Below are positions 2,657-51,578 of a stretch of 64,000 bases of DNA, in pieces. Every line of letters begins with the position of its first letter. The stretch's first letter is position 1. Both the position numbers and the translations under genes were made by a program. The stretch is from a virus, in the IMG/VR virus record IMGVR_UViG_3300024346_000017, positions 32,001-96,000 of that record. One strand, 5' to 3'. A model generated the notes under the pieces. It was not told the origin of the DNA, made no database searches, and was given only the letters and a program-made list of their open reading frames with translations.

Positions 2657-3268
2657 ATGAGTAACATAGTAATTTCAGCTCCAGCAGGATCAGGTATGAC
2701 TTATGCGACACTGCTTCTTAAGCTTGCATATAATAATCAAGCAGAGGGCTGCGGGCATGAAAGATTTGAGATAGAAAATTCAGGACCTCAGATAGTAATT
2801 TTAAGAAATCCCTATGATACCGTAGCATCAGGTGCGGAAAGATGGGTAAAGGGATCTGGACATAGCAATTTTGAAATTCAAGGACAAGCAATAGATTCAA
2901 CAGATTTAGAAGGAATGAAAAATAATATTAGAAATGAAGAAGCGAGATATCTTACTTTTTTTAAAGACATAGAGTCTTTAGATCATATTAAAATTTTAAG
3001 TTTTGAGTTGTTAACACAAAATACTAAAAAATTTATTCAAGAAGCTGGTTCACATTTTGGCTACACATACGATGGTGATGAAGAATTAGAAGCTAAAACA
3101 TTTAATGAATTAAAAATACATGGATATGAAAATAGAGCACCACGTGAAAAATTTCCTGCTCGTCAAACAATTGAAGACATTATGGCAAAGAAATATAATA
3201 AAGAAACTTGGGAATCTTGGAAAATTTATTCTGAACTAAAAGCAAAACTAGACGAAAAAGGTTTATAA
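2657..3268 (+). CDS. sulfotransferase-like protein (paralog of 1106..1708)
   Basis: IVISAPAGSGMTY, ILRNPYDTVAS, LSFELL, RAPR motifs shared with 1106..1708. Confidence 0.6.
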   Translation: MSNIVISAPAGSGMTYATLLLKLAYNNQAEGCGHERFEIENSGPQIVILRNPYDTVASGAERWVKGSGHSNFEIQGQAIDSTDLEGMKNNIRNEEARYLTFFKDIESLDHIKILSFELLTQNTKKFIQEAGSHFGYTYDGDEELEAKTFNELKIHGYENRAPREKFPARQTIEDIMAKKYNKETWESWKIYSELKAKLDEKGL

Positions 3269-27608: not shown

Positions 27609-29411
27609 ATGTCATATAAATATACTGTCTTAAAAGATAACCCAGTTGCATTTTTCTTATTGGATGAAGTTCGTTCTGGCGAAGCTGGTGTATACAGTAA
27701 TTTAACTACATTATATCCAACATATCAAGCTTTAAAAGATAACGGTGTTTCATATGCCGCAGTAAGCGGGCTGCCAATAATTGATTACACTGGAAACTCC
27801 ATGGAGGGGTATGCAATTAATACTTCAGCCATGGAAGTTCTTCCTATTATTGGGGCGGGGGTAAGAGGAACAGAGATAAATGAAGATGCACAGATAAGCC
27901 TAAAAGCCCTAGGACTTGGTATGAATAGAAATCCAGACGGTCCATTCGCATTTGAAATATGGTTTAGTCCAGCTAAAGATGACAACTCAGAATATCTTAT
28001 TATGGGAGATGCAGAAAATTCAATTGGCCTATTCTATAAAAATGAAAACATTATTTTTAAATGTAGTCCAACACAGATGGTTTGGCATAAGATTACAAAA
28101 AATAAAGCCATGCATGTTGTAGGTATGTTTTCTAAAGATACAATTTCACTTTATGTTGATGGCAAAATTGTTTCTGAAAGTCCAGTTGCCGATAGCTTTA
28201 AATTTAATAATACAAGCTTAAACCTATCCTTGGGACCAGCCAACGCAGGCAAAAAATTTATTGTTGATTCAGCAGCAATTTATGCCTATGAGCTAGAAGA
28301 AGCAAAAATATTAAATCATTATCTGTCTGGATACAAAGAGACAAAGTACTCACAAATTGTTTATTCAAATAATGGAATTCTTTTTTCATTAAACTCGGCC
28401 TCAGTAAGACCAGACATTTCATATAGGTATCCTGGAATAAAAGCACTAGAAGAGCTTGCCTCTGGAGATGCCTATTATAATTCAGAGTATAGCAGAATTG
28501 AGTTTGAAGAAACAGATGCCGTGGAAACAAAAACATTTTCTTTTCAAGAAAGATTGTATGTATCAAATCCAGAAGATATTGTTTCTTCTAGAATTTGCTA
28601 TGGGCAGGATGTAGACAATATTGTGGTTGAAATACAAATCCCAAATCAGCCATGGGTAGTTTGCAAAAATAATTCTCCAATGCCATACTACAACAAAAAC
28701 CAGAACTCAGGAAGCCCAATATTAGATATAAGGGTAACAATGACGACACAGGATTCATCCTTCGACCTACCTTACTTTGATAAGCTAGAAATTGATATGT
28801 ATTCAAATAAAGATTTTTATGCAGATAATTCTGGATCAAAAATATACTCAGCATACGACTATGAAGTAGGACAATATAATTACCCAGTAAGAATGCAAAA
28901 TAAATACAACGGACTTTCAATGTATTCTGGCCATGGGTTTTCTGTAGATCTTTCTATTCAGCCAAGAACAATAGAGATGTTTTTTACTCCAAGGGGTGGA
29001 CAAAATGTATTATTTTCTTCAGCATCCTCATCAATTAAATGGGCGGCAAACGGAGTAATAACAAAAGCTGGCATTTCTGCTATATACGTAAATGGTATAA
29101 ATAGGACATCAGAGACTAATGTATCCACATTCTTGCTAAATGATGTTGCCCACCATATTGTAATTGTATTAAGTCAGTCAGCCCTAAATATTAAGTTTAA
29201 TCAAAATCAATTAGATACGGAGTATGGAACTTCAAATCTATACAATAATATAGCTTTTTATGAGAAGGCATTTACCTCCGCAGAAGCAATAAATAACTAC
29301 AGGCTCTACTGCTCAGATAACTCAAAGGTTGTTACTGACCCAGGAGTGACTATATCTGAAAGTGCCCAAGGTCAGGACGGAACCTCATACTTCATAAGGT
29401 TATTTGACTAG
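27609..29411 (+). CDS. structural protein with LamG/ConA-like domain
   Basis: FAFEIW...HVVG...LYVDGK...AIY pattern; VLKDNPVAF N-terminus. Confidence 0.65.
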   Translation: MSYKYTVLKDNPVAFFLLDEVRSGEAGVYSNLTTLYPTYQALKDNGVSYAAVSGLPIIDYTGNSMEGYAINTSAMEVLPIIGAGVRGTEINEDAQISLKALGLGMNRNPDGPFAFEIWFSPAKDDNSEYLIMGDAENSIGLFYKNENIIFKCSPTQMVWHKITKNKAMHVVGMFSKDTISLYVDGKIVSESPVADSFKFNNTSLNLSLGPANAGKKFIVDSAAIYAYELEEAKILNHYLSGYKETKYSQIVYSNNGILFSLNSASVRPDISYRYPGIKALEELASGDAYYNSEYSRIEFEETDAVETKTFSFQERLYVSNPEDIVSSRICYGQDVDNIVVEIQIPNQPWVVCKNNSPMPYYNKNQNSGSPILDIRVTMTTQDSSFDLPYFDKLEIDMYSNKDFYADNSGSKIYSAYDYEVGQYNYPVRMQNKYNGLSMYSGHGFSVDLSIQPRTIEMFFTPRGGQNVLFSSASSSIKWAANGVITKAGISAIYVNGINRTSETNVSTFLLNDVAHHIVIVLSQSALNIKFNQNQLDTEYGTSNLYNNIAFYEKAFTSAEAINNYRLYCSDNSKVVTDPGVTISESAQGQDGTSYFIRLFD

Positions 29412-37085: not shown

Positions 37086-37206
37086 TTTGCCTTTTGGTTG
37101 ATTGTAAGATAAAATTGTACCAAGAGGAAAAGAGCCTAGCCAGCTTAATTTAAAGTTTTACAGCAAGTCAATATATATATATATTTATTTAATGGAGGTT
37201 TTACAC

Positions 37207-37962
37207 ATGGCAACACAAGTCGCAGGTAACGCTAAGAATATTCTAGTTGGTGCTTCACCACTATTTATTTCTAACATTGACGTTACAACAACAGGATACC
37301 AGGACAATGCAGAAGCAGGAGTACTGTTCCCAGCATTAGCAACAGGAGCAGCAATTCAGGTACCACTATTTAAGGCACCAACTTCATCAGCAGAAGGTGA
37401 GTCTTATACAGATACACTTAACGCAATTGATGCAGAAGCATTTGCAGCTGGAGATCCAAAGAAATTCGCATATCGTAACGTAGGTTACACAAACAATGGT
37501 CTTCAGGTAACATACAACCCATCATACGGTTCAGTTACAGTAGATCAGCTTCTTGATACAGCAAAGCTATTCAAGGAGTCAATGGAAGTTATGATCGCAA
37601 CAGAAATGGCTGAAGGTACACTTCAGAACATTCTTACAGTATTCGGTCAATCAGCAGGCACACTTACAGATGGAGCAACAACAGACAAGCTTGGTCTTGC
37701 TGGTGGTGCTCTAGGTGAGGCTCCAACAGAGCGTCAGCTAATCGCAGTAGGTCAGGCACCAACTTCTGGTTCAGGAGTAACAAAGGCAGAGCGTGTATAC
37801 TATGCACGTCGTGTTCTTTCTGTACAACAGTCACAGTTCTCTTTGGCTCGTAACGCAGCATCAACATTCCCAGTCACATTCCGTTTGCTTCCAGACGGTT
37901 CTAAGCAGGGTCAGGAATATGGTTTTATTGTAGATCGTGTTCTTTCAAAGCTATCAGCATAA
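37207..37962 (+). CDS. major tail tube protein
   Basis: NILVGA, VGYTNNG, VTVDQ, FPVTFRLLPD; start revised from GGAGG RBS; followed by terminator and chaperones. Confidence 0.85.
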   Translation: MATQVAGNAKNILVGASPLFISNIDVTTTGYQDNAEAGVLFPALATGAAIQVPLFKAPTSSAEGESYTDTLNAIDAEAFAAGDPKKFAYRNVGYTNNGLQVTYNPSYGSVTVDQLLDTAKLFKESMEVMIATEMAEGTLQNILTVFGQSAGTLTDGATTDKLGLAGGALGEAPTERQLIAVGQAPTSGSGVTKAERVYYARRVLSVQQSQFSLARNAASTFPVTFRLLPDGSKQGQEYGFIVDRVLSKLSA

Positions 37963-38071: not shown

Positions 38072-38404
38072 TTGGCAACAACAGTATATGATGTAGAAGA
38101 AATTCAGCTACAAAATGGCGCAACCGTAAAGCTAAAGCCTTTAACAATTAAAGAGCTTAGAAAGTTTATGTCAGCTATTGCAAAGACAGCAGAAGTTACT
38201 ACAGAAGATGAAACCCTAACAATTCTTATTGACGCTTGTGCAGTAGCACTAGAAAAGCAGCTACCAGAATTAGTAGCAGACAGAGACGCATTTGAAGACG
38301 TATTAGATGTACCAACAATTAATCGTATCCTTGAAGTTTGCGGTGGCATTAAGATGGACGATCCAAATTTGCTAGCAGCAGCGGTTCTAGCTGGTCAGAA
38401 CTAG
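38072..38404 (+). CDS. tail assembly chaperone (gpG-like)
   Basis: Between major tail and tape measure; TTG start after GGAGG. Confidence 0.8.
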   Translation: MATTVYDVEEIQLQNGATVKLKPLTIKELRKFMSAIAKTAEVTTEDETLTILIDACAVALEKQLPELVADRDAFEDVLDVPTINRILEVCGGIKMDDPNLLAAAVLAGQN

Positions 38405-38730
38405 ATCTAGCTGCGTTAGAAGGAGAAGTATTTCTAATAGGAAACTATAAGAATTACGAGGAATTGGAAGACAATCTTTCAATGCCAGAATTGATTCAAA
38501 CTTTTACATCTATGCAAAAGTCAGAGTCAGAAAAAAGAAAATTCTTAGCTGCAATACAAGGTGTAGATCTTGAAGGTGGCCAAGAAGAAGAAACAAGTAG
38601 CTTTGAAGATGTAAGAAGAAGAGCTCTTGGAATTACTGCAGACGCAACAGATGTTGTTTCACTACAGGGTCAGTTTGCATCAGAAGCAGGGTTTGGTATC
38701 GGAGCTGGCCTCGGATACAAAAAGGAGTAG
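38365..38730 (+). CDS. tail assembly chaperone frameshift extension (gpT-like), -1 frame
   Basis: Slippery A_AAT_TTG at 38365-38371; -1 frame is open from 38365 into ORF 38464..38730. Confidence 0.75.
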   Translation, partial: KFASSSGSSWSELDLAALEGEVFLIGNYKNYEELEDNLSMPELIQTFTSMQKSESEKRKFLAAIQGVDLEGGQEEETSSFEDVRRRALGITADATDVVSLQGQFASEAGFGIGAGLGYKKE

Positions 38731-38734
38731 GTAG

Positions 38735-41700
38735 TTGGCAGATCAAAATATAGTTACCAACATAACTGCGACGGCTAATTTTTCTAGCCTAACAGCGCAG
38801 TTACAAGCGGTGACCTCCCAACTTCTTAAGCTTCAAGCAACAACGATTGGTTTAAATAAAAATCTAACTAGCCAAGTTGGAGTCATGAATCGTCAGTTTG
38901 ACGAAACCATGCGCTCCACTGGCCAGTTTGCTAGACACTTTGTAACACTAACTTCAGACGTATCTAAGTTCGGTCAGAACCTAGATAGCGGAAGAATGAA
39001 GCTAAGCCAATATTTTCAAACATGGCAGGGACATACAAGAAAAACTAGCTCATTAGTTAAAGAGCTAGCCAAGCAGCAGGTAATGCTTGAGAACGCAGTA
39101 GTTCAGCCTCTCGGCAAAAATGCTCAAGGATTAATGCAATACAACGTTATGGTTCAATCTGGACTAGACGTTACAAAAAACAAATCAGCATTACTAAGAC
39201 AAGAACTAGCCATCATGAACAAGGTGATGATGGATGGATCAAATCAACTTATTAACTGGGGTAAGAATACTCAGTGGGCTGGTAGACAGCTCACAGTAGG
39301 ATTAACTGTCCCACTTGCTGCATTTGGAATGGCGGCAGCAAAAGCATTTAGAGAAGCAGATCAAGAGTTAGTAAGACTAACAAAAGTTTATGGCGGATTA
39401 ACAGCAACATCAAGTGCTGATCTATTGCAGGTTAGAAAAGATGTAATTGCTGTATCAAGAGAATTAGCTTCTGGCTTAGGAGCAAACTTTAAAGAAACTA
39501 TCGGTGTAGCAGCAGACATTGCTGCAACTGGAAAACAAGGCGCCGAACTTATAGATTCTACAAGACAGACTACAAGACTTGCTATACTCGGTGAAGTAGA
39601 TAGACAAGATGCCATGAAGGCTACATTAGCAATTCAAACAGCATTTAGTCAAAACACAATGGAGCTTGCTGAGTCTATTGACTTCCTCAACGCCGTTGAA
39701 AACCAGACATCTACAACACTAGAAGATTTAGTAACAGCAATTCCAAAAGCAGGACCAGTAGTAAAAGCTTTGGGTGGAGATGTACAAGATCTTGCACTTT
39801 ATTTAACAGCAATGCGTGAAGGTGGAATTAATGCTTCAGAAGGAGCTAACGCACTTAAGTCTGCATTAGCATCTGTCATTAACCCAACAAAGGTTGCAAA
39901 AGAAATGTTTATGGGTCTTGGAATAGACTTAGCAGGAATTGTAGATAAAAATGCTGGAAACTTAACTGGCACAATTATGGCACTAAAGGACTCATTAGAT
40001 TCGCTTGAGCCACTACAAAGAGCAAGAGCTATTGAGCAGCTATTTGGAAAGTTCCAGTTTGCTAGAATTAATGCATTGTTTGAAAACCTAGGTAAGCAGG
40101 GTAGCCAGACACTTCAAGTTTTAGATTTGATGAAAGCTAGCACACAAGACTTAGCATCTATTTCTGAAAGGGAATTAAATGCTCTTACTGAATCTGCTTC
40201 TGGTAAATATAGAAGAGCACTTGAGTCAGTAAAAGCAGAGCTTGCTATTGTTGGAGAGCAATTCTTAAAAGTAGGAGCATTTGTATTAAATGCTATTGAT
40301 GGAATTTTAAAGTTTATTGGAAACCTTCCAGGACCAATTAAAGCTGTACTAGGATTTATTGGCAGCCTTACGGCTATTGCTGGTCCTATAATCATGCTTA
40401 CTGGTGTTCTGGCCAACTTCTTTGGATATATTATAAAGGGAGTATTAGCACTAAAAAATATTGGAAAGGGCGGAACAGGGTTTAAGTTATTAACCCCAGA
40501 ATTAATGGCAGCAGCATCTGCTGCTGAAACCGTAGAACAATCATTCTATAGCGACACAAAAGCAGCGGCTACATTCTCTGATGCAGTTTTAACTCTAGCA
40601 GCATCATTTGAAAAACTAAAGCAAAGCGCAATGAGCTCTACAATTGCTACATCTAATAGCATGTCTACTGTTGCAGGAAACCCAGTTATGGGAGTTGGCG
40701 GAAGAATTGTAGATAAGAGCCACCCACTTGTAGGGCGGGCATACTCAAGAGATATGTCTCACCTTACACCAACAGGATCACTTACTCCAGAGCAAAGAGC
40801 AAGAGAAACAATCTTTTCAACAGTTCCTGGACCTAAGCCAGTAAATCAAAGAATTTCAAATTCTCCACAGGTATATATGGATGGAGATCTTCCAAAGATA
40901 CCAGGAATAACATCTGTAAATGGAGTTTCAACTGGTGTAGTTGCAGCTGAAGCAGCCAAGTGGCACTCAATGACCGCAGCAATTGCTATGCAGTCAAAGG
41001 CTGAATTAGCAGTACTTAAAACTGAAATAGCAGCAACTGGAACAATTACAGCATCACTAGCAGATTCATATCAAGCACTTCTTCCTCAAATGACAAAGGT
41101 GACAACTTTAGCTGCACAAGAAACTGCAATGATAGTTCAACAACTACAGGCTGGCAAAATTACTGTTGAAGCAGCAAGAGCAAAGATATTTGCACTAAAT
41201 GCTCAAGTTGAGGCTATGATAGCTCAGACAGCTACAGGCGTTGCAACTGCACAAGCAAGAACTTTAAGTTTAACTACAGTACCTTTAACAACTCAACCAG
41301 TAGTAAATGCAGCTGGAAGATCAAATATGAAAGAGCTTTTCCATAAATCAGAAACCTCAAAGATGGTTGATGTAATTGCAAGAGCTTTGGGAGTTAGAAC
41401 TTCTGGTGCTGGTTACAGTATAGAAACAACAAAACCTAGATTTAATACTGGTGGACAAATTGAATCTTTCGGAGCAAATAAAACACGGGTAAGTGGACCT
41501 GCATCAATTTCATATGACGACAGAATGGGTAGCGTTCCACTAAATGGATATGTTCTTAATCAGCCAGCATCGTTGGATCCAAGAAATGCTCCACTAGTAC
41601 AGGCCGCAGCCTCTACTCATCAAAATTCTGGCGGAAATATAACTGCTCTTCTTACACCACAAGAGACAGTGTTTGGTCCAGGAATACAAGAAAACCCAGA

Positions 41701-44700
41701 ACTTTTTGCTGCAGTTGATGCAGCAAATAATGGAATTCCTTTTTCATCATTTATGGGTGGAGGAAATATTACATTATCAAGATCAAATTACGGCGCTATA
41801 AACCCAGCAGTAATGGCAAGAATTTTAGGCCAACTGTTTAGACGAAATCCAAAACTTTCAAAAGAAATTTTAAAGGGAAGAGATTTAAGACTTACTGGTG
41901 CAGAGGCAAGAGCATACCAAGAAGGAGTATTTGGTTCTGCACTTAAATCTTCATCCAGAGCATTAGGCAGAGAGTATTATTTTGTAGGAAATTGGGGAGG
42001 AAGACTAAGATCAAGTGTTAACTCTGCACTTGCACATGGTGCTGCTAGAAGATCTGATATTGTGAGCGATTTAATGCACAGTACATCGCAACAAGCACTT
42101 CCATCACTTACTAGATTCCTACAGGTCAATAAAGTTTCGCCAGATAAAATACAGCTAATCACAGATAGAGCTAGAGCAAATATCGTTTCTAGCTTATCTG
42201 GTACTGGAAAAATTGGAGAAGCTGAATGGTCAAGAATCCAACACAGAGAGTACCTTGCTGCAGCAAAAGAGCTTCGTTTAAGAAAAGAATATTTAGAGAG
42301 TCTAAATGTTCCAGGACAAAGAAGAGGACACTCAACAGATCCAGCAGCTAGAGGAATTCAAGCAGAAACTGCTTTAAATCCTTATGGCACAACAGACCTA
42401 GGAAAGCTTATATCTGCAAACGACCAAAATGGCACAAGGTTCATGGGTTCATATCGTACCTATGGAATAGAAAGAATTAATGGAGAGCCAACCGCATTAG
42501 CTCACATGATGCCTAAATTTAATTCTGGTGGACGAATTGGCGGGATGATAAGGTCTGGTAAGTACAACTACGGAGTTATGGGCAATGTACTAAAGTCTTT
42601 AGCCATGAGAAGAATAGGCGCTGGCTTTGGACCAACAGGTGCACCAAAGCCTAGTACGTATGAGTCAGCCCCATGGGGAGTAAGCTCTCTATCAATTAAA
42701 GCAGCAGACACACTATTTGCTGACACGGGTCTAAGAAAGAATTCACAAAAACTTCTATACGATAAGTTTGCTGCGGCACTAGCCCAAGAAAAACCTTACG
42801 GATATGTTAAGGGTGTTAATGGAGAATTAAGAAACGCCCTTGAGCCAGCATCATTAGATTCTGTTATAAGAAAAGCCGCAAGCGACCTTATGTCTGATAG
42901 AAGAGCTTACATGCAGCTTTCTCCAATTGACAGAGACATACTTAGAAAGAAATATTTAAACTGGGAATCTAAAAAAGATACACCTATTACTGAATCTTTA
43001 AAACAAAGAATTTTTGGAAGTAGCACTCCAGGATTTATGGGTGGCGGTATTATTCGTCGTGGTAAAAATGCATACGGAGTAAAGGGTAACCCAGCTGCTC
43101 GTGCAGCTCAAGAAGCGGCAAAAAGAGCAAGAAGAGAAGCATTTGAACAACGTACAGGATCTGATCCAGAATATAGAGAAGGACCACTAACTGGTTCAAA
43201 AACAACAGTAGTTGGCAATGGTGGAGTAAGAACAAACGTTTATGGACTACAAGGATCACTTCCTTATGCTCCAGGATTAGGTTTACCATTCCAAAGAGCA
43301 AACATAGCAATAGACTCAATGTTTTCTTCTATTGGCAATTCACTTAAGACTGCATCCGACAGACTAATTGTTAAAGCTAGAATGTTGCCAGACCAAATTA
43401 AATCATCAATGATGGCAGTTACTGGAAGTATTCAGCAATTAGGCACATCAATTAAAACAGTAGCTACAGGAGCTTCAGCTGCAATTGCTTCATCAGTAAG
43501 AAGTTTTGCATCTTCTTACAAGCCTGGTGGATCTGAAATATTAAAGTATGGCGCTCCTGGAGCATTTATTGGCACAAGAGAAGATCGTGGAGCAAGAATT
43601 ACTGGATCATTTAAGGCCAACGCTGCTTATTCAACTGCAGCAATGATGCATCCAATTCAATACTTAAAGACTAAGGGTATTGGAGCAGATCCAAACACAC
43701 CTCTTGGCTCAGGCAACATGGGTAACATGGTTGGAATGATGGGCGGAATGGCAGCAGGAACTGCCATAGGAGGAAAGCTAGGTGGACAAAACGGTGCCAT
43801 GATGGGCAGTATGGTTGGAATGATGGCTGGCCAATCTGTTATTAAGGGCGTAGGCGGAATGATTGCAAAACGTGCTGCAGCAAGTGCAGCAACAGCAGGA
43901 TTAGCTTCCGCAGGATTTGGCGCAACAGCAGCAGCTGCTGCAGGCTTGGTTGCACCATTAGCAGCAGTAACAGCAGCAGGATATGCTGGATACAAAATGT
44001 GGAAGCACTATAAAGAAGGACAAACCCTTAATATATCTACTTTTGGAATGACTGCAGAAGCAGCTAAAAAGGCTAACTTAAGATTTACAGACTTTGGCTC
44101 AAAGATAAAAGACACTATTCAAGATTCAAAAGACATGGCGGCTGCAAATAAACTCGTTTATGAAAGCATGAAGGATGGCGGAACTCCATTCCAAATGAGT
44201 ATTGCGGAATATAAAAAGCTTAAGAAGGAAGTCAAAGAAACTTTTGGAGAGCAGATAAAAGCTTTAGATAGACAGCCTTCAAATAAGGTACCAGATGCAG
44301 TTCGTAGAATTAAAGAGCAGCTAATTGCTGCTGGCATGTCTGCAGACGAAGCAACTAAAAAGGTATTTACAATGCTTCAACTTTCAAATAAAAAAGATCA
44401 ATCAATTACTGCAACAATGGGTAACAATAGCTTTAAAAATATTACAGACCCACAAAGTGCTGCAGTTTCTGCAGTAACAAGTTTTGGCGCAGATACAAAA
44501 GATCAAGGAAACAAAGAAAAGGCAGCATCACTAAACACAGCTTTAATGGCAACTGAAACTGGAATAAATGATTTAATAGCTAAGAGAGAACGCCTTGTAG
44601 CAAAAGATTTATCTGGAAAGACAAAGTCACTTACATACGCAGAAGCCGAAAAGATAATGATAGACAAGATCAACAAGTCTAAAGAGGCTGGCACAGTTAT

Positions 44701-47700
44701 TACTCAGGGAACAATCGATGAGATGGCCAAAACAAATCCAGAAGTAAGAAAGATGATTAATGGATCTGATACTGTAGTAAGCGTATGGCAAAAGATTAGG
44801 TTAGAAGCACAAGGATTTGAAGGCGACCTTTCTCAACTAAATGCTGCACAAACAAAACTTATTGCAGACTCGTTTGCAGCAATATCTGATGCTGTAGTTG
44901 CAAAAAACAGAGGTGGAATATTAAAAGATCAGTACGCATCACTTGATAAACTAGAAAAGCAAATTAAGAATTATACAAAAGCTCTTAAGGGACAATCAGT
45001 TGCGGAACAAATATCTGATAGAGATAGACTGAAAGCACTTAATAAACAAATAGAGGCTATAAATAAACTGGCGGAGTCAAGAAAGAAAGCTCTTGCTGCC
45101 GCACAAGAAGATGCAAACCTTGGAAGACAAATTGAAAAGGTTAGACTTGAGATACAAAATGCAGTTTCAGTCGGAGATACCGAAAAGGCACAAAGCTTAA
45201 GAATTGATTTAGAGTCACTTACTTCACAGCAGCAAACAGATGCCCAGATGAAGGCAATAGATACTGCTGCGGAAGCCGCAACTAAGCCTTTAAAGGCTGC
45301 CATGGATGCTATTACAAATAAGCAAGAAAAGCTTGGTGACGCAGCTGCACTAGCAGGAGAAAGTTTAGATAAGTTAAAAGATAGATACGATAAGCAACAA
45401 GCAGCAATTAAAAAAGTAAATGATTCTATGACTGCTTTATATGGAAATGCTGCAGCAGCAGGATTAACGGTTGAGGCTTACGCAAAGAAAAATAAAGAGG
45501 CATCTGCGGGATTTGTAGCCGCAATGGAAGCTGCCACAGGCGCAGCAATGCCAAAGTATAAAGAAAAAACATACTATAACGGCAGTATGTTGGTTACAGA
45601 AAAGGTTCCAATTGCTCCATATGAAAACGCACTAGAGCTTCTAGCAAAATCTGGTGCCGCTACAGGAGTAAACGAAGCACTTGCAAATAGCATTAAAGGT
45701 GGAGCAACTCTAAAAGATGTTGTTGATGCAGTCAATGGTAAAAACGGCAAGCCTGCATTAAGAAAAGATATTGTAGTAAAAGGTGATTACTCTAACAGTA
45801 AAGAAGATAAAGAGTTTGATGGCAAAAAAGTTAAAGTTCTAAATGCAGAAGCTCGTGATGCTATTAGAAAGAGACTTAAACTTGAGCCAGGAGAAACATT
45901 TATAGTTGATGGACAAAAGTATAAGCAGAACACTACTGGTGGAACTCCAATTTGGGTGGGGCCAGCTCCACAAACACCTGCTTTACATGAAGGCGGAAAA
46001 ATATCTGGTCCAGGTACCTCAACATCAGATTCAATTCCAGCAATGCTTTCAGATGGAGAATATGTATTTAGTGCAAAGGCTGTAGATGCAGCTGGTGGAC
46101 CAGACGCCGTAGATTCTTTGCACAAAGCACTTAGAAGAGCAGATGGAGGACCAATTGGAAAACAGAAGCCTCAAAAACAACAGCTTCCATTTTTCCCATG
46201 GCGTCATGATCTTCCAGATTACTGGAGTAATGGTGCACCAACGGGAAATCCACGTACTGGAAGATGGGGAGAATTAAGATACAATCCGTCTAAGGGTAAA
46301 GATATTTGGGGCGGAACAGAAATTCCAGGACTTAAGTTTACTGGAAAGACACCACAGCAATCAGACTACTGGCATCAGATGACTGAGCAGCCAAGTAAAT
46401 CTCGTGGTCCAGGAATGGGTATAGACAAAGATCCAATGAGACTTGCAGGCTCTGGAGCATCTATGGGATTTTCTGGAAACGGAGCATATGGGTTCGGCCC
46501 ACTATTGTTTGCAGAGGGTGGATCAGTAAAGAAACAAAATTGGTTCCAGAGATACGTTGCAAGCTTAACTAAATCAAGTGACTCATTGCCAGCATGGGCC
46601 AGAGACCCACTTGGAGTTCAAGCCCTTTTAAGAAATATTGCAGGGCAAGGCAGAAAGGGAGATAATCTTTCATCTGCATTAATGCCGCTAAACTTTATGG
46701 GCGTAGGTAAACTTGGAAAAACAGCAGCATCTTCAGTGCCTAAAGTAGTAGGTTCAGTTTCCCATCTTACTCCAGAGATGAAATCCTTTAGCATGGCAGA
46801 CATTGATGCTAAGGCAATTCAGGCTTTATCAAAGTTAGATCCTTCTTCAATAAAAATTCCAGAGACAGGAATTACTTTTAGCCCAAGCTCAGCAAGAGCT
46901 GCTCTTGAAGGATGGAAACAAACAGGAGATGCAGCTGGAGCCTCTCTTTGGGAAATTGTTCAGGCGCAAAGAGAAACATTACTAAAAGCTAAATATCCAA
47001 AAATTGATTTTTCTGATGTAGCAAAATTTAACGAATACTATGCAAAAGAATTTTACGACTTGCTTCCAGACGAGGCTATTAAGTTATTTAAGGGTGTAAG
47101 AAGCACAGCAGGAGATGCATGGAGAACTGGTCAAAAAGATCTAGGTACTTATTTTTCAACTAATCCACATGTAGCCGCACTTTATAGCGCAATGATAGGA
47201 AAGGCAAAAATTGGCGAAGAGCTGCCAATGTTCAGTATTGATAAAAGAATATCCGAACTTAAAAATTTTCTAGGTGAAGGAGCAATAAGAAATGGCTCTG
47301 CACAAGGGAGCATGGAGTTCCCACAAGTATTGGGCGGCGAAGATCTATCAAGGATTTTGCCTAACATATATTCATTACCAGGACAAGTTTACGGACAGAT
47401 GTTTGGTGCTACAGCAAAGTCATTAAAAGAGATAAAGAATTTATGGCCTTCTGGTTTTGCTCAAGGAGGCTACGTACCTAAATTTAAAAATGGAATTAAC
47501 GTAGTCCCACAGGATATGTTAGCAATGATTCACAAAAATGAATCTATAGTTCCAGCCAGTATGAACCCATTTAATCCAGATGCAGCAATGCCAAAATACA
47601 ATTTTAATAGGTCTTCATTTAATGTAAGAGGAGACGGAGCAATTGGAGCATCTTATACTGTTAATCAAAACATATACGCATCTGATGGAATGGATGTAGA

Positions 47701-47797
47701 GGCCCTATCTAATATGATTGTTAAAAAGGCTGAAGTTGTTATTGGACAAAAGGCTAAGGTTAATGTTAAAATGGTTGGACAGGGGAAGAATATATAA
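38735..47797 (+). CDS. tape measure protein with modular inserted domains
   Basis: TMP core (LTVGLTVPLAAFG, EGANALKS), GPGTSTSDSIPAMLSDGEYV motif, repeated FxxGG motifs; 3020 aa. Confidence 0.92.
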   Translation: MADQNIVTNITATANFSSLTAQLQAVTSQLLKLQATTIGLNKNLTSQVGVMNRQFDETMRSTGQFARHFVTLTSDVSKFGQNLDSGRMKLSQYFQTWQGHTRKTSSLVKELAKQQVMLENAVVQPLGKNAQGLMQYNVMVQSGLDVTKNKSALLRQELAIMNKVMMDGSNQLINWGKNTQWAGRQLTVGLTVPLAAFGMAAAKAFREADQELVRLTKVYGGLTATSSADLLQVRKDVIAVSRELASGLGANFKETIGVAADIAATGKQGAELIDSTRQTTRLAILGEVDRQDAMKATLAIQTAFSQNTMELAESIDFLNAVENQTSTTLEDLVTAIPKAGPVVKALGGDVQDLALYLTAMREGGINASEGANALKSALASVINPTKVAKEMFMGLGIDLAGIVDKNAGNLTGTIMALKDSLDSLEPLQRARAIEQLFGKFQFARINALFENLGKQGSQTLQVLDLMKASTQDLASISERELNALTESASGKYRRALESVKAELAIVGEQFLKVGAFVLNAIDGILKFIGNLPGPIKAVLGFIGSLTAIAGPIIMLTGVLANFFGYIIKGVLALKNIGKGGTGFKLLTPELMAAASAAETVEQSFYSDTKAAATFSDAVLTLAASFEKLKQSAMSSTIATSNSMSTVAGNPVMGVGGRIVDKSHPLVGRAYSRDMSHLTPTGSLTPEQRARETIFSTVPGPKPVNQRISNSPQVYMDGDLPKIPGITSVNGVSTGVVAAEAAKWHSMTAAIAMQSKAELAVLKTEIAATGTITASLADSYQALLPQMTKVTTLAAQETAMIVQQLQAGKITVEAARAKIFALNAQVEAMIAQTATGVATAQARTLSLTTVPLTTQPVVNAAGRSNMKELFHKSETSKMVDVIARALGVRTSGAGYSIETTKPRFNTGGQIESFGANKTRVSGPASISYDDRMGSVPLNGYVLNQPASLDPRNAPLVQAAASTHQNSGGNITALLTPQETVFGPGIQENPELFAAVDAANNGIPFSSFMGGGNITLSRSNYGAINPAVMARILGQLFRRNPKLSKEILKGRDLRLTGAEARAYQEGVFGSALKSSSRALGREYYFVGNWGGRLRSSVNSALAHGAARRSDIVSDLMHSTSQQALPSLTRFLQVNKVSPDKIQLITDRARANIVSSLSGTGKIGEAEWSRIQHREYLAAAKELRLRKEYLESLNVPGQRRGHSTDPAARGIQAETALNPYGTTDLGKLISANDQNGTRFMGSYRTYGIERINGEPTALAHMMPKFNSGGRIGGMIRSGKYNYGVMGNVLKSLAMRRIGAGFGPTGAPKPSTYESAPWGVSSLSIKAADTLFADTGLRKNSQKLLYDKFAAALAQEKPYGYVKGVNGELRNALEPASLDSVIRKAASDLMSDRRAYMQLSPIDRDILRKKYLNWESKKDTPITESLKQRIFGSSTPGFMGGGIIRRGKNAYGVKGNPAARAAQEAAKRARREAFEQRTGSDPEYREGPLTGSKTTVVGNGGVRTNVYGLQGSLPYAPGLGLPFQRANIAIDSMFSSIGNSLKTASDRLIVKARMLPDQIKSSMMAVTGSIQQLGTSIKTVATGASAAIASSVRSFASSYKPGGSEILKYGAPGAFIGTREDRGARITGSFKANAAYSTAAMMHPIQYLKTKGIGADPNTPLGSGNMGNMVGMMGGMAAGTAIGGKLGGQNGAMMGSMVGMMAGQSVIKGVGGMIAKRAAASAATAGLASAGFGATAAAAAGLVAPLAAVTAAGYAGYKMWKHYKEGQTLNISTFGMTAEAAKKANLRFTDFGSKIKDTIQDSKDMAAANKLVYESMKDGGTPFQMSIAEYKKLKKEVKETFGEQIKALDRQPSNKVPDAVRRIKEQLIAAGMSADEATKKVFTMLQLSNKKDQSITATMGNNSFKNITDPQSAAVSAVTSFGADTKDQGNKEKAASLNTALMATETGINDLIAKRERLVAKDLSGKTKSLTYAEAEKIMIDKINKSKEAGTVITQGTIDEMAKTNPEVRKMINGSDTVVSVWQKIRLEAQGFEGDLSQLNAAQTKLIADSFAAISDAVVAKNRGGILKDQYASLDKLEKQIKNYTKALKGQSVAEQISDRDRLKALNKQIEAINKLAESRKKALAAAQEDANLGRQIEKVRLEIQNAVSVGDTEKAQSLRIDLESLTSQQQTDAQMKAIDTAAEAATKPLKAAMDAITNKQEKLGDAAALAGESLDKLKDRYDKQQAAIKKVNDSMTALYGNAAAAGLTVEAYAKKNKEASAGFVAAMEAATGAAMPKYKEKTYYNGSMLVTEKVPIAPYENALELLAKSGAATGVNEALANSIKGGATLKDVVDAVNGKNGKPALRKDIVVKGDYSNSKEDKEFDGKKVKVLNAEARDAIRKRLKLEPGETFIVDGQKYKQNTTGGTPIWVGPAPQTPALHEGGKISGPGTSTSDSIPAMLSDGEYVFSAKAVDAAGGPDAVDSLHKALRRADGGPIGKQKPQKQQLPFFPWRHDLPDYWSNGAPTGNPRTGRWGELRYNPSKGKDIWGGTEIPGLKFTGKTPQQSDYWHQMTEQPSKSRGPGMGIDKDPMRLAGSGASMGFSGNGAYGFGPLLFAEGGSVKKQNWFQRYVASLTKSSDSLPAWARDPLGVQALLRNIAGQGRKGDNLSSALMPLNFMGVGKLGKTAASSVPKVVGSVSHLTPEMKSFSMADIDAKAIQALSKLDPSSIKIPETGITFSPSSARAALEGWKQTGDAAGASLWEIVQAQRETLLKAKYPKIDFSDVAKFNEYYAKEFYDLLPDEAIKLFKGVRSTAGDAWRTGQKDLGTYFSTNPHVAALYSAMIGKAKIGEELPMFSIDKRISELKNFLGEGAIRNGSAQGSMEFPQVLGGEDLSRILPNIYSLPGQVYGQMFGATAKSLKEIKNLWPSGFAQGGYVPKFKNGINVVPQDMLAMIHKNESIVPASMNPFNPDAAMPKYNFNRSSFNVRGDGAIGASYTVNQNIYASDGMDVEALSNMIVKKAEVVIGQKAKVNVKMVGQGKNI

Positions 47798-48249
47798 TGG
47801 CAACAGCTTTAATTTTACCAGCAGGAGCAGCTTTGTCTCTACAAGACGATGCTGGTGTTTTCCATTCATTAACTGAACATAACAGAAGTCCCATAACAGT
47901 AGAAACACAAAGGTTCGAGAAGACTTCTAGAATGGCCAATGGAAGCCTTAGAAAGCTGTTTATAGCCGATAAGAAGACAGTCTCTACCTCCTGGAGCATG
48001 GTTCCCTCATACAATAGTATGACCGTAGACGGATACTGGGGAGCAGAAGATATAAAAAACTTTTATTTAAGCACTCATGGACAAGGCACATTTAATGTAA
48101 AAATTGCATATAATTCTACAAGAACAGAAACCTTCCTTGCCTCATTTACTTCATGTTCAGCAACTATGGTAAGAAGAAATGTAAAAGAAAAAGCGGCGGA
48201 CACAGCACAAGTATTTTGGGATTTATCTATTTCACTGGAAGAAGTATAA
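47797..48249 (+). CDS. distal tail-like protein
   Basis: RMANGSLRK...W; directly after TMP. Confidence 0.6.
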   Translation: MATALILPAGAALSLQDDAGVFHSLTEHNRSPITVETQRFEKTSRMANGSLRKLFIADKKTVSTSWSMVPSYNSMTVDGYWGAEDIKNFYLSTHGQGTFNVKIAYNSTRTETFLASFTSCSATMVRRNVKEKAADTAQVFWDLSISLEEV

Positions 48250-51200
48250 TGCAATACGTAAGCCCATCAACCTTAAGTTTAATTAATGAGTCTGCATCTT
48301 ATTCAATGTCGGGCGGATGCTGGCTAGAATATAATATGAACGATTTGATTTTAGGCGCTAAAGTAAGAGGGCCAAATGGAACTGATGAAAATCCAGAAGG
48401 CACTCTTCAAATAACACAAACTGTTAATGGTAAAACATACTACCCATATAAAAAACTATTCCCCTTAACAAATATAATAGATCCAAGAAGACCTTCTTCT
48501 GCGGGCATAAGCTATTTTTTATTAAACAAAATGGCACCAGTTGCTATACCAAAATATAATGTTTCAAAAGAACTTCCCTCCAGACTTTATTTTGCCAGTG
48601 CAAAGAATCAGTATAAGTATTTCTTGGCTGGACCAGCAGAAAATCTTTCTCTGCCTAACTGTAATATTAATGTAGAGTACCCAGTATTAAAAACAGCTGT
48701 AGCAAATGTTATAGTTGTTAAATTTGAAACTTCATACTCAAAGCCAGTCAGCTGGTCAATTAAAATAAAAAACCATCAGGACGTAGAGGCGACTATATTT
48801 ACAAATACAGTTGTATCAAGTAGCAACACAGGAGTATTTGAACTTTATTACAATGGTGGTCTTTGGTCAAGTCCTTCCTCATGGTCAACTACAAAATTTA
48901 CAACACCATCAATTCCAGTAGATATTAAAAACATTACTGTAACAGTAAGCACAATTAATAAAGCAAACTCATACCTAGGCGTTATTGAAATAGGAGCAAA
49001 ATATATACAAGATGTTTCTGACAGAGTAATTTCTTTTCAGGCTTCAAAAATGTCTTCAGATAGTTCATCTGGAATTGTTCCAGTAGGATCAGTAACATCA
49101 AACGCATTATCCTTATCCTTAGAAGGATTTGATAAAAAGGGAATAGAGTACGATAAAACTTACGCATTTAATAAGAACAATATTAATTTATATAAAAACG
49201 TTAAGATGATTCCATTTAATAAAATAGGATCAGATATGATTTTTCAAGGAGTATTTTATATAGATTCTTTTAGTATATCTGAGTTTGGAGATATTGATAT
49301 TCAGGGACTAGACGGAGCCAAATTTTTACAAGAAATATTAGCTCCAGATATTGTAATTCAAAATGCTCCATCACAGGCAATCATTAGAAGGCTATTGGAC
49401 GGCATAGGATTTACTTCCTATAACTTTAATACATATGCAAAAGACAGTACAGACTTAACCGATACAGCTACCATAGTCCCGCTATTTTGGTATACAGAAG
49501 ATACAAAGACAGTCTGGGAACATATACAGGATTTATGTAGAGACACACAAATGATAGCTACATTTGATAACAACGACATACTTCAATTCTATCCTAGAGA
49601 CTATCTGTTTGATAAAACAAGAGGAACTAACTTTAAGTTTAGAAGCGAAAAAAAATTATTAAATCTACCCAATATAATGTCTATGAGTAAAGAAACAGTG
49701 CCTTCAGTTAAGGCAGTTAAAGTGATTTATTCTCCAATAATAAGCACAAACTATTCTGGTTCTTCAGACAACCTTTACGTTTCTCCACCATCAGCAATTG
49801 GTGCAGCCGCCTTACAATCTACTTTATTAGCAACACCACCTGTTACAGTAGACGCCCCATTAGGAGTGGTTACTCTTGCACCAATAAGCGTGTACAGTTC
49901 TTTGGCCGACACATCTTTTTATAATAAGTCTGGATATTTTTTAATAAATAATGAAATAATTAAATATGATGCAATTGAATTTCAATACGAGCCTGTTTCT
50001 GCACCGAACACTCTTGTAAAAAAATGGATTACTTCTGACTCAGATATAGCAAAGTGGCTGGGAGAAAGTAAAATAGGTTCTTTTAAGTCAACGCTAAGGT
50101 ATAGAATTAAAGAAAGAAATTCATTTAATGCTACTGGTAAAGGGGTTGGTGTTGGAGAAGAGCACAAGGTAGAGATTAATAAGTTAAAGGAGGAATGGTT
50201 TGGATCTAGGCTAAATCTTTCTGCAAAAACAAATGTTGGAGATCAATCAGTATTTACATTAAAGCAGACGGAAAAGCAGTCAGAGGGTCCAGTAGTAAAA
50301 GAAGTAGAAGTATCAAGATCACTACTTCACATTGTTACTCCCCCAGCATCTAAAGAATATTATTGTGCATCAATTACTCCAGATACCGTTAACATATCTA
50401 CAGAAGAATATTTTTCTGTAGGAACGGCATTGTTTTTTAAACTTGCAAAAGATAAGTTTGGAAGAGTAACTGGAGAGCAGGCAGTATCTGCTGCATTAGG
50501 AATAGGGCTTGACTCTAATAATTTAAATGGTTACATATTAAAAATTTCAACTTCACAAAATGTTGCAACCAAAGGACTAGAGTCTAAAGACGTTCAGCTG
50601 TGGAAGATTGTAGACGGTAAAGAAACAAAAATTACGGATACGCAAAAGACTGAAGATAATTCAATTACTGGAGTATCTGGCGGAAAGTTTTATAGAATAG
50701 ATGTAAAAGTATCTAAGGCCACAACTGGTAAAAAAATATTTAAAATTAAATTTAATAATCAACTCATTACGGCAACTGATGAATCCCCTATAGCAATAAA
50801 CTCAAAGATCTCACTTATTGGAATTGAAGGAGAGGCAGCCTTTGACTATGCATACTGCTCTTCTTTAACTAAAAATGAATTTAACTCTTCTACCTCATAC
50901 GACAACTACGGCTCATATATTTCAGCATCAAACGCCCTACAGAATTTGTTTGGAGATTTTGTTTTTACTGGATCTAATTCTTCTTCTAAGGCTCCATGGA
51001 TAAAAGAGTTTGGGCCAGTAGCAAGAGAAATAAAAAAAATATCAACTAAATATTCAACAAGGCCAGGGCTTGTTAAATATCCTCAGATAATATTAAATCC
51101 AAACGTTACCCTTATAGGGTATAACGCAAACTCTTTTGGAATAGAGGCCTACATACTAAATAACACTGGCGCATTTGTTGACATAGCAGATGGCGGAGAA

Positions 51201-51578
51201 AAAAGCTTTATTGTTGTTGGAGAAACAATAACAACGTTAGACCCATTTGAGTATATAGACCCATTACTTTCTTCAACTAAAAATGAAGAGCAGGTTGCCT
51301 TTGAGTCCACATGGATACAAAAAGAAGAAGAGGCAAAAAAATTATCTGAATGGATGAGAACTCAGTGGTCAAATCAACAGATTGTTTTGACCCTTGATAT
51401 TTTCCCTAACCCGATACTTGAAATAGGAGATATTGTAGAAATATCTTATCCTAATAACTCAGTGTATTCTACAGAGGATACAGGCAAAACGGCAGGCAAA
51501 TATATAGTTTTGGACATAGAGCAGGCCTATAGCTCTGACCCATCTACAAGAATAACATGTAGGTCGATTTATGTTTAA
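48249..51578 (+). CDS. tail tip / hub protein
   Basis: Large ORF; C-terminal PNPILEIGDIVEISY; start revised to TAATG overlap at 48249. Confidence 0.7.
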   Translation: MQYVSPSTLSLINESASYSMSGGCWLEYNMNDLILGAKVRGPNGTDENPEGTLQITQTVNGKTYYPYKKLFPLTNIIDPRRPSSAGISYFLLNKMAPVAIPKYNVSKELPSRLYFASAKNQYKYFLAGPAENLSLPNCNINVEYPVLKTAVANVIVVKFETSYSKPVSWSIKIKNHQDVEATIFTNTVVSSSNTGVFELYYNGGLWSSPSSWSTTKFTTPSIPVDIKNITVTVSTINKANSYLGVIEIGAKYIQDVSDRVISFQASKMSSDSSSGIVPVGSVTSNALSLSLEGFDKKGIEYDKTYAFNKNNINLYKNVKMIPFNKIGSDMIFQGVFYIDSFSISEFGDIDIQGLDGAKFLQEILAPDIVIQNAPSQAIIRRLLDGIGFTSYNFNTYAKDSTDLTDTATIVPLFWYTEDTKTVWEHIQDLCRDTQMIATFDNNDILQFYPRDYLFDKTRGTNFKFRSEKKLLNLPNIMSMSKETVPSVKAVKVIYSPIISTNYSGSSDNLYVSPPSAIGAAALQSTLLATPPVTVDAPLGVVTLAPISVYSSLADTSFYNKSGYFLINNEIIKYDAIEFQYEPVSAPNTLVKKWITSDSDIAKWLGESKIGSFKSTLRYRIKERNSFNATGKGVGVGEEHKVEINKLKEEWFGSRLNLSAKTNVGDQSVFTLKQTEKQSEGPVVKEVEVSRSLLHIVTPPASKEYYCASITPDTVNISTEEYFSVGTALFFKLAKDKFGRVTGEQAVSAALGIGLDSNNLNGYILKISTSQNVATKGLESKDVQLWKIVDGKETKITDTQKTEDNSITGVSGGKFYRIDVKVSKATTGKKIFKIKFNNQLITATDESPIAINSKISLIGIEGEAAFDYAYCSSLTKNEFNSSTSYDNYGSYISASNALQNLFGDFVFTGSNSSSKAPWIKEFGPVAREIKKISTKYSTRPGLVKYPQIILNPNVTLIGYNANSFGIEAYILNNTGAFVDIADGGEKSFIVVGETITTLDPFEYIDPLLSSTKNEEQVAFESTWIQKEEEAKKLSEWMRTQWSNQQIVLTLDIFPNPILEIGDIVEISYPNNSVYSTEDTGKTAGKYIVLDIEQAYSSDPSTRITCRSIYV

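Follow-up and report, generated by a model that had tools for sequence, protein, structure and literature searches.

The window analysed here, a stretch of 64,000 nucleotides (bases 32001-96000 of the 113,108-bp IMG/VR virus record IMGVR_UViG_3300024346_000017, from a metagenomic siphophage), contains the gene of a giant phage tail tape measure protein (TMP) in which a short glycine motif, h-x-x-G-G-x-[I/V], recurs eight times. Modules of the protein are exchanged among its relatives at these motif copies, and in relatives the same slots hold peptidoglycan hydrolase and peptidoglycan-binding domains. Judged by sequence, the copies are shortened reiterations of a longer TMP element, at whose first residue the TMP of phage T5, pb2, is cut. 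Since the repeated motif matches the cut site of the T5 TMP, the protein may be a polyprotein that is delivered by the virion. We give a probability of about one half to the whole of this reading, in which a core, a 'tape' and exchangeable modules are joined by an element that is a processing site, and the polyprotein is expelled at infection.

Module exchange among relatives

Among 5.8 billion proteins searched, 119 relatives with lengths of 1700-3900 amino acids (aa) were found, all of them metagenomic and on contigs of up to ~120 kb; they have the same N-terminus as the TMP, MADxxIVTNI. Family counts below are out of 120 family members, and breakpoints are the ends of BLASTP high-scoring segment pairs (HSPs) against the query TMP. 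The breakpoints form clusters at seven of the eight motif copies, at the residues given in Table 1. It was found that 67% of the 498 breakpoints from the 119 relatives lie within -8 to +25 of a motif copy, compared with 8.7% for random placement. When the proteins were compared all against all, each in its own coordinates, 41% of the junction bins fell into motif footprints that cover 11% of the sequence. Across 36 aligned relatives the GG of the motif copies is invariant and the flanks are variable.

The modules assort independently, in 36 different presence patterns, and a single junction has up to eight alternative non-homologous modules as its neighbour, before or after it. The identities of the parts are also discordant. 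Module S7 is ~80% identical in relatives P0080-P0083, although their core is 65% and their 'tape' 40% identical, so that the backbone is only 40-65% identical in relatives that share this module, and the closest relatives, with 96% core identity, lack S7. Globular domains are bracketed by motif copies in several relatives: a CHAP+LysM cassette stands between R-FAEGG-KV and K-FAEGG-KV in relative P0088, an OmpA cassette between FAAGG and FHKGG, and a tail lysozyme domain between GSTGG and FKDGG. A first reading of the window, made from the sequence alone (the sequence-only reading), had proposed that the motif marks recombination boundaries of swappable modules. The alignment of related TMPs bears this out, with replacements and indels that start and end at the motif copies; this mosaicism is clearly at odds with inter-motif segments that are conserved and collinear.

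Many relatives insert a module of ~335 aa right after M3, which closes with another motif copy. This module (P0015 aa 1277-1612; P0006 aa 1290-1648) contains the patterns GG.Y.KPDG..VFVKPV and RGDKDL...N. They gave a by-eye impression of a kinase; as the module has no Pfam or PDB sequence match, no claim is made.

Table 1. Features of the tape measure gene and its neighbours. Coordinates are window positions; residues are those of the TMP.
Feature	Coordinates	Strand	Residues (aa)	Remarks
Ig-domain tail protein	37192-37962			upstream of TMP
Two small chaperone-sized ORFs	38072-38404, 38464-38730			between Ig-domain protein and TMP
TMP open reading frame	38735-47797	+	3020 aa long	TTG start
Conserved TP901-type TMP core	38735-41440	+	1-902	hydrophobic segment near aa 530-600
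Ninth, motif-like copy MGVGGRI	40688-40708	+	652	inside conserved core; no breakpoint cluster there
M1 FNTGGQI	41441-41461	+	903	GG invariant in 36 aligned relatives; few breakpoints
M2 FMGGG, FMGGGNITLSRSNYG	41750-41803	+	1006-1023	40 HSP ends at aa 1020-1029; 8 downstream module types in relatives
Module S2	41804-42517	+	1024-1261	in only ~20 relatives
M3 FNSGG, FNSGGRIGGMIRSGKYNYG	42518-42583	+	1262-1283	49 HSP starts at aa 1280-1289
Module S3	42584-43033	+	1284-1433	presence independent of S2
M4 FMGGG, FMGGGIIRRGKNAYG	43034-43090	+	1434-1452	25 HSP starts at aa 1420-1439
Gly/Met/Ala-rich hydrophobic segment	43685-44014	+	1651-1760	110 aa, glycine-zipper-like, mid-TMP; read from sequence
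Lys/Glu/Ala-rich helix-like stretch	44015-45982	+	1761-2416	by composition, read from sequence
M5 LHEGG, LHEGGKISGPGTSTSDSIPAMLSDGEYVF	45983-46084	+	2417-2450	45 HSP ends at aa 2410-2419
M6 RADGGPI	46136-46156	+	2468	8 HSP ends at aa 2470; 3 downstream module types
M7 FAEGGSV	46508-46528	+	2592	24 HSP ends at aa 2590-2609; 8 downstream module types
Module S7	46529-47455	+	2599-2907	linker, predicted helical subdomain (46772-47056), predicted ADP-ribosyltransferase-like core (47069-47407)
FKG of S7	47087-47095	+	2785-2787	first strand of ADP-ribosyltransferase-like core (model); nearly invariant in 33 sequences
YFST of S7	47150-47161	+	2806-2809	Y, F and S nearly invariant; strand (model residues 126-129), then helix 132-142
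Candidate catalytic Glu in AQGSMEFPQ	47315-47317	+	2861	precedes strand at model residues 184-187
M8 FAQGG, FAQGGYVPKFKNGINVVPQDMLAMIHKNESIVP	47456-47569	+	2908-2945	71 HSP starts at aa 2900-2919; 8 upstream module types
C-terminal module S8	47570-47794	+	2946-3020	in most relatives, 33-95% identity
Minor tail protein	48153-51578			1141 aa; downstream of TMP

Motif copies in the tape measure protein

All eight copies that the sequence-only reading had listed are present at their positions, in frame within a single open reading frame (ORF), and the three copies that it had described as extended to GG..YG do carry the extension (GGNITLSRSNYG, GGMIRSGKYNYG and GGIIRRGKNAYG). The ninth, motif-like copy in Table 1 had been missed. 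The pattern F..GG occurs six times in the TMP compared with 0.82 times expected from 20,000 shuffles (P=5e-4). In all eight copies I or V stands two residues past GG, and all fit h-x-x-G-G-x-[IV]; the strict pattern h..GG.[VI] was counted nine times in the TMP and twice in the 16,348 aa of the other ORFs of the window, a ~24-fold higher density. Copies M2-M4 retain GG-x4-[GS]-x3-Y-G, while M5 and M8 retain a ..GE/NE..V.. tail. The M5 columns G, T, S, D, S, I, S and E are invariant in the 36 relatives, and M5 resembles FATGG..GIVHRGEFVF of lambda gpH, but with z=2.8 only. The TMP of Streptomyces phage Tomas terminates in a sequence similar to M8, GGKIKYDNTIANLHKNEAVL.

The segments after the motif had been described as often beginning with basic stretches. 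This holds after four of the copies: the net charge of the following 30 aa is +5 to +7 for M2, M3 and M4 and +3 for M7, compared with a protein mean of 0.9 (standard deviation 1.8); it is not raised after M1, M5, M6 and M8. In the AlphaFold2 model the motif copies fall in irregular, low-confidence, linker-like stretches.

Relation to a long TMP element and to known cleavage

The motif consensus of the family, drawn from 261 distinct contexts, is P-[GRK]-F-[NA]-x-G-G-x-[VI]. A longer element, R-x-x-GG-x4-G-x2-Y-x2-GE-x-G-x-E (as R-E-M-GG-PV..G..Y.VGE.GPE.F.P), occurs in 87 of the 120 family members; 43 of its 44 distinct instances have an R at -3 of GG. Most relatives have it, in the T5-like form REMGGPV..G..YLVGEKGPE, just upstream of their M4 copy. 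A 41-aa copy of the long element from a relative matched 268 phage records from very diverse hosts, and among the matches listed almost all lie under annotated TMPs. The long element is thus a widespread TMP signature.

The T5 pb2 sequence FVPR-AEGG-MMYPGVSYQMGEHGTEVVTP fits the long element position for position and in the same register. The hidden Markov model (HMM) of the family aligns pb2 residues 1127-1152, beginning at R1127 (E=0.015 at Z=1000). It is after R1127 that pb2 is cut, as mapped by mass spectrometry (LC-ESI-TOF-MS), and both pieces remain in the tail (PMC10038345). The T5 cut (R|AEGG) therefore lies at the first residue of the long element, and it is the only TMP cleavage site that is mapped to residue level. 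Lambda gpH loses ~14 kDa from its Gly-rich C-terminal region, with site and protease unknown (PMC12617516). At 733-737 it has FATGG, with GG-x4-G-x2-Y and ..HRGEFVF after it; cleavage behind F733 would yield pieces of 79.8 and 12.5 kDa, and a cut at a second copy, YATGG at 778-782, pieces of 84.6 and 7.7 kDa. The correspondence with lambda is a prediction. In a third case, the processing of Tal of TP901-1 takes place at a Gly-rich junction that precedes the lysin domain (PMC11409707). No consensus TMP cleavage motif was found described in the literature searched.

The shortened form h-x-x-GG-x-[IV] is present in all eight copies of the query. Its best partial HMM match to the T5-type element is M6 (RADGGPIG, aa 2468), with a non-significant score of -3.0 and with R at the position of T5 R1127. 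From the precedents of T5, lambda and TP901-1 Tal, we infer that cleavage is the most likely role of the copies. The other half of the earlier proposal, that the motif marks cleavage boundaries, thus gains support by analogy, in that the T5 pb2 cut R1127|AEGG stands at position 0 of what seems to be the same element.

An ADP-ribosyltransferase-like module

For module S7, structure prediction gave a confident model that suggests an enzyme-like fold. AlphaFold2 modelling of aa 2680-2907 with 33 homologues yielded a mean predicted local distance difference test score (pLDDT) of 86.9 and a predicted template-modelling score of 0.86; in the model a helical subdomain leads into an alpha/beta core. 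In a structure comparison, only 41 of 48,161 PDB chains reached Z>=2, the best with 3.9 (root-mean-square deviation 4.8 A, 98 aligned residues). From the entry titles, we take at least 38 of these 41 chains to be proteins of the ADP-ribosyltransferase (ART) fold; the matches include diphtheria toxin, TreX, ParT, Arr, DarT, PARPs, ExoA, C3 and pertussis toxin. The Foldseek top list also consists mostly of ARTs (best E=0.09), and the ESM Atlas gave ART-PolyVal and TNT clusters at 0.77-0.85. S7 against the Pfam ART families gave no hit at E<=10. The S7 homologues, 32 among 1.84 billion representatives, are essentially all TMPs or TMP fragments.

We also compared the model with the catalytic triad of ARTs (R/H - S/Y - E on strands 1, 2 and 5). 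The FKG, YFST and Glu2861 of Table 1 lie on or beside the corresponding strands, and Glu2861 is invariant in one homologue alignment and nearly invariant in the other. The first position holds Lys and not Arg or His; this Lys presumably sits where R-S-E ARTs carry Arg. From the model, S7 is best described as an ART-like fold and a putative enzyme.

Modules that adjoin S7 in relatives gave sub-threshold hits, one to GNAT (P0167 aa 327-391, 18.5 bits, cutoff 20.7) and one to ART-PolyVal (P0158 aa 435-481, 14.3 bits, cutoff 31.2). In relative P0002 the S7 slot holds two more modules, in which FATSS/YGG patterns occur.

Proposed explanation and alternatives

In the explanation that we propose, three kinds of parts would make up the gene product: the conserved core of TP901 type (aa 1-902), a 'tape' that is long and helix-like (~aa 1761-2416), and several exchangeable modules, whose junctions would carry h-x-x-G-G-x-[I/V], often lengthened to GG-x4-G-x3-Y-G. 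The junction element would be a reiterated and shortened version of a TMP element that is normally single and near the C-terminus, and it would be cut just past its first residue, as T5 pb2 is at R1127|AEGG. On this view the TMP would be a polyprotein: its pieces would remain in the tail, to be ejected together with the TMP when the phage infects, and they may be delivered into the host. Short nucleotide identities between copies (TTT AAT NCT GGT GGA; TTT ATG GGT GG) may aid the recombination that swaps the cassettes.

Several points weigh against this explanation. The full T5-type element was not found in the query TMP by regular expression or HMM; what copies M1-M4, M6 and M7 have in common with it is no more than its first half or h-x-x-GG-x-[IV], and pairwise C-terminal alignments with T5 and lambda are not significant beyond the motif (z 0.2-2.8). 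In T5 and lambda a single cut is known, and not a series. Pfam found no peptidase domain in the TMP, which is without Cys, and no protease was identified. For this uncultured phage family, cuts at the eight copies are an extrapolation. As regards the cargo, the S7 match to ARTs has weak absolute scores (Z<=3.9, Foldseek E>=0.09), a Lys stands in place of the usual Arg/His, and most of the other modules fold poorly and match nothing.

The alternative that survives best, and which we regard as possible but on the unlikely side, is that the motif is only a flexible glycine linker and a recombination junction. The TMP would stay intact save perhaps for one C-terminal cut, and the modules would act within the whole protein. 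All the junction evidence is explained equally well in this way: the short nucleotide identities between copies could drive the exchange, T5 and lambda are known for single cuts only, and the GE half of the T5 element is missing from most copies. However, the aromatic or basic residue at -3 and the I/V at +2 of GG are kept across hundreds of distinct contexts, which a linker need not do, and a mapped T5 cleavage site stands in the same register.

It is improbable, in our view, that the motif is a structural docking element, for example a short beta-hairpin that registers TMP chains or binds the tube lumen, the tail assembly chaperone or tip proteins, with the T5 cleavage being incidental. No copy has a confident predicted structure, and docking leaves unexplained why insertions and replacements end exactly at the motif. 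What can be said for it is that the GG-x4-G-x3-Y-G extension resembles a tight turn with an aromatic anchor, that a small strand pair is predicted after M5, and that TMP C-terminal regions dock in the tip (PMC10038345, PMC12617516). Lastly, the idea that such copies arise by chance in a protein rich in Gly is refuted: the loose [FLR]..GG is not significant alone (8 compared with 4.3 expected, P=0.07), but F..GG and the strict pattern are enriched as given above, the GG columns are invariant in relatives, and the breakpoints coincide with the copies.

The reading of the motif as a processing site allows a wider, tentative extension. The pattern h-x-x-G-G-x-[I/V] might be a general TMP processing signal that is cut after its first residue (in lambda, F733|A734), which giant TMPs of this family multiplied so as to become true polyproteins. 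Among the pieces would be the ART-like enzyme of the query and, in relatives, cell-wall hydrolases and perhaps modules like GNAT or ART-PolyVal; they might leave the tail for the envelope and cytoplasm of the host before the DNA does.

That the TMPs of lambda and T5 are cleaved has been known for some fifty years, yet for lambda neither the site nor the protease has been identified (PMC12617516). From an element that is conserved and falls on the only mapped site, a concrete prediction follows for lambda and hundreds of other phages. TMPs can serve as carriers of cassettes with a defined junction, and the motif-bounded slots hint at where a TMP might tolerate foreign domains. If the polyprotein explanation is true, the tail lumen would be a second delivery route for phage effectors beside the head, and the idea of virion-delivered 'polyvalent' effectors would extend from the one to the other.

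Comparison with known systems

T5 pb2 has the long element in the same register as 87 of the 120 family members, and a hydrophobic stretch precedes its site. On the other hand, it has one copy and one cut, with a C-terminal piece of 92 aa that carries a small muralytic motif, whereas the query has 8-9 shortened copies spread over 2100 aa between large unrelated modules; there is no detectable sequence homology between the two outside the element. Lambda gpH, which is processed to gpH* and gpHC, resembles the query in having FATGG in the Gly-rich C-terminal region where ~14 kDa are lost (PMC12617516), but it lacks cargo modules.

TMPs with embedded cell-wall hydrolase motifs are known from mycobacteriophage TM4 and staphylococcal phages (cited in PMC12617516). 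Like these and TP901-1 Tal, which are tail proteins bearing entry enzyme domains, relatives in the present family carry CHAP, LysM, OmpA and lysozyme cassettes. The TM4, staphylococcal and Tal proteins differ from the query in that they embed one or two domains and lack a junction motif that recurs, and the query has an ART-like module instead of a recognisable hydrolase.

Polyvalent proteins (Iyer et al. 2017) are very large mosaic multi-domain proteins thought to be co-delivered with DNA, in which ART and GNAT domains are typical and for which processing into units was postulated (PMC5512222). Their scaffolds are packaged in the head, and an MPTase domain was proposed as the processing peptidase; the paper mentions neither 'tape' nor tape measure proteins (PMC5512222). 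The query TMP is likewise giant and mosaic; the domains identified are an ART-like module in the query and, in relatives, CHAP, LysM, OmpA and lysozyme. It differs in that its scaffold is a tail protein and its junctions are marked by a short motif, and the Pfam search found no MPTase domain or head-packaging anchor in it.

Polymorphic toxins also have a short conserved motif (VENN in CdiA, the end of the Rhs core) that bounds a variable, exchangeable module at the C-terminus and is possibly a point of cleavage. They have one junction per protein, unlike the query, and differ in motif, secretion route and biology.

Other parts of the protein

Outside the motif copies, the core is 53-97% identical in all full-length relatives. 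The Gly/Met/Ala-rich segment is variable or absent in distant relatives and is comparable in kind to the hydrophobic stretch that precedes the cleavage site of T5 pb2 (PMC10038345). The Lys/Glu/Ala-rich stretch that follows it is collinear in relatives, with 23-96% identity, and its composition suggests that it is probably the length-determining 'tape'. The C-terminal module S8 is the part that would dock in the tail tip if T5 and phage 80alpha are a guide (PMC10038345).

Each query module was searched against Pfam at E<=10 and gave no hits, S2 and S3 among them; S2 also has no clear look-alike in the ESM Atlas. With phmmer, neither the query TMP nor relative P0015 had a match among PDB sequences. 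Predicted in one piece, aa 2400-3020 gave a poor AlphaFold2 model (pLDDT 51), in which most of these C-terminal 620 aa fold poorly. The matches to this model in a structure search were all helical and weak, several OTU deubiquitinases at Z ~4 among them. A GG-specific Cys protease embedded in the TMP was considered and rejected, because there is no cysteine anywhere in the 3020 aa.

Identity and neighbourhood of the tape measure gene

The product of the ORF is a TP901-family phage tail TMP. It matches Pfam PF10145 PhageMin_Tail at aa 243-438 (E=1.5e-25, 90.7 bits, gathering cutoff 33.2), and PHROG TMP families match it down to E=1e-122. Its gene has the place of a TMP gene among the tail genes: the major tail protein and two chaperone-sized ORFs come before it, and the minor tail protein follows. 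Window positions 29000-52000 are syntenic with Streptomyces phage Tomas (134 kb) in the order protease, capsid, Ig-domain tail protein, two small ORFs, TMP and minor tail protein, and the TMP core of Tomas is 35% identical to the core here. The same structural-module synteny was found with Stanwilliamsviridae phages of Streptomyces; the window has 35-43% GC. From the GC content of the window, 38%, the host probably differs from that of Tomas. Isolate phages are matched by the N-terminal core only, through TMPs of Streptomyces and Gordonia phages with 30-35% identity. Megablast and tblastn searches of the variable part of the TMP against 50,697 phage records found nothing.

Two observations concern neighbouring genes. 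Upstream of the portal gene, a 600-aa ORF at 27609-29411 has a Laminin_G_3 (concanavalin-like lectin) domain and no terminase match in the Pfam search at E<=0.01. Downstream of the TMP, a 150-aa ORF at 47797-48249 runs ~97 nucleotides past the ATG that is listed as the start of the minor tail protein (1141 aa), so one of the two starts is probably wrong.

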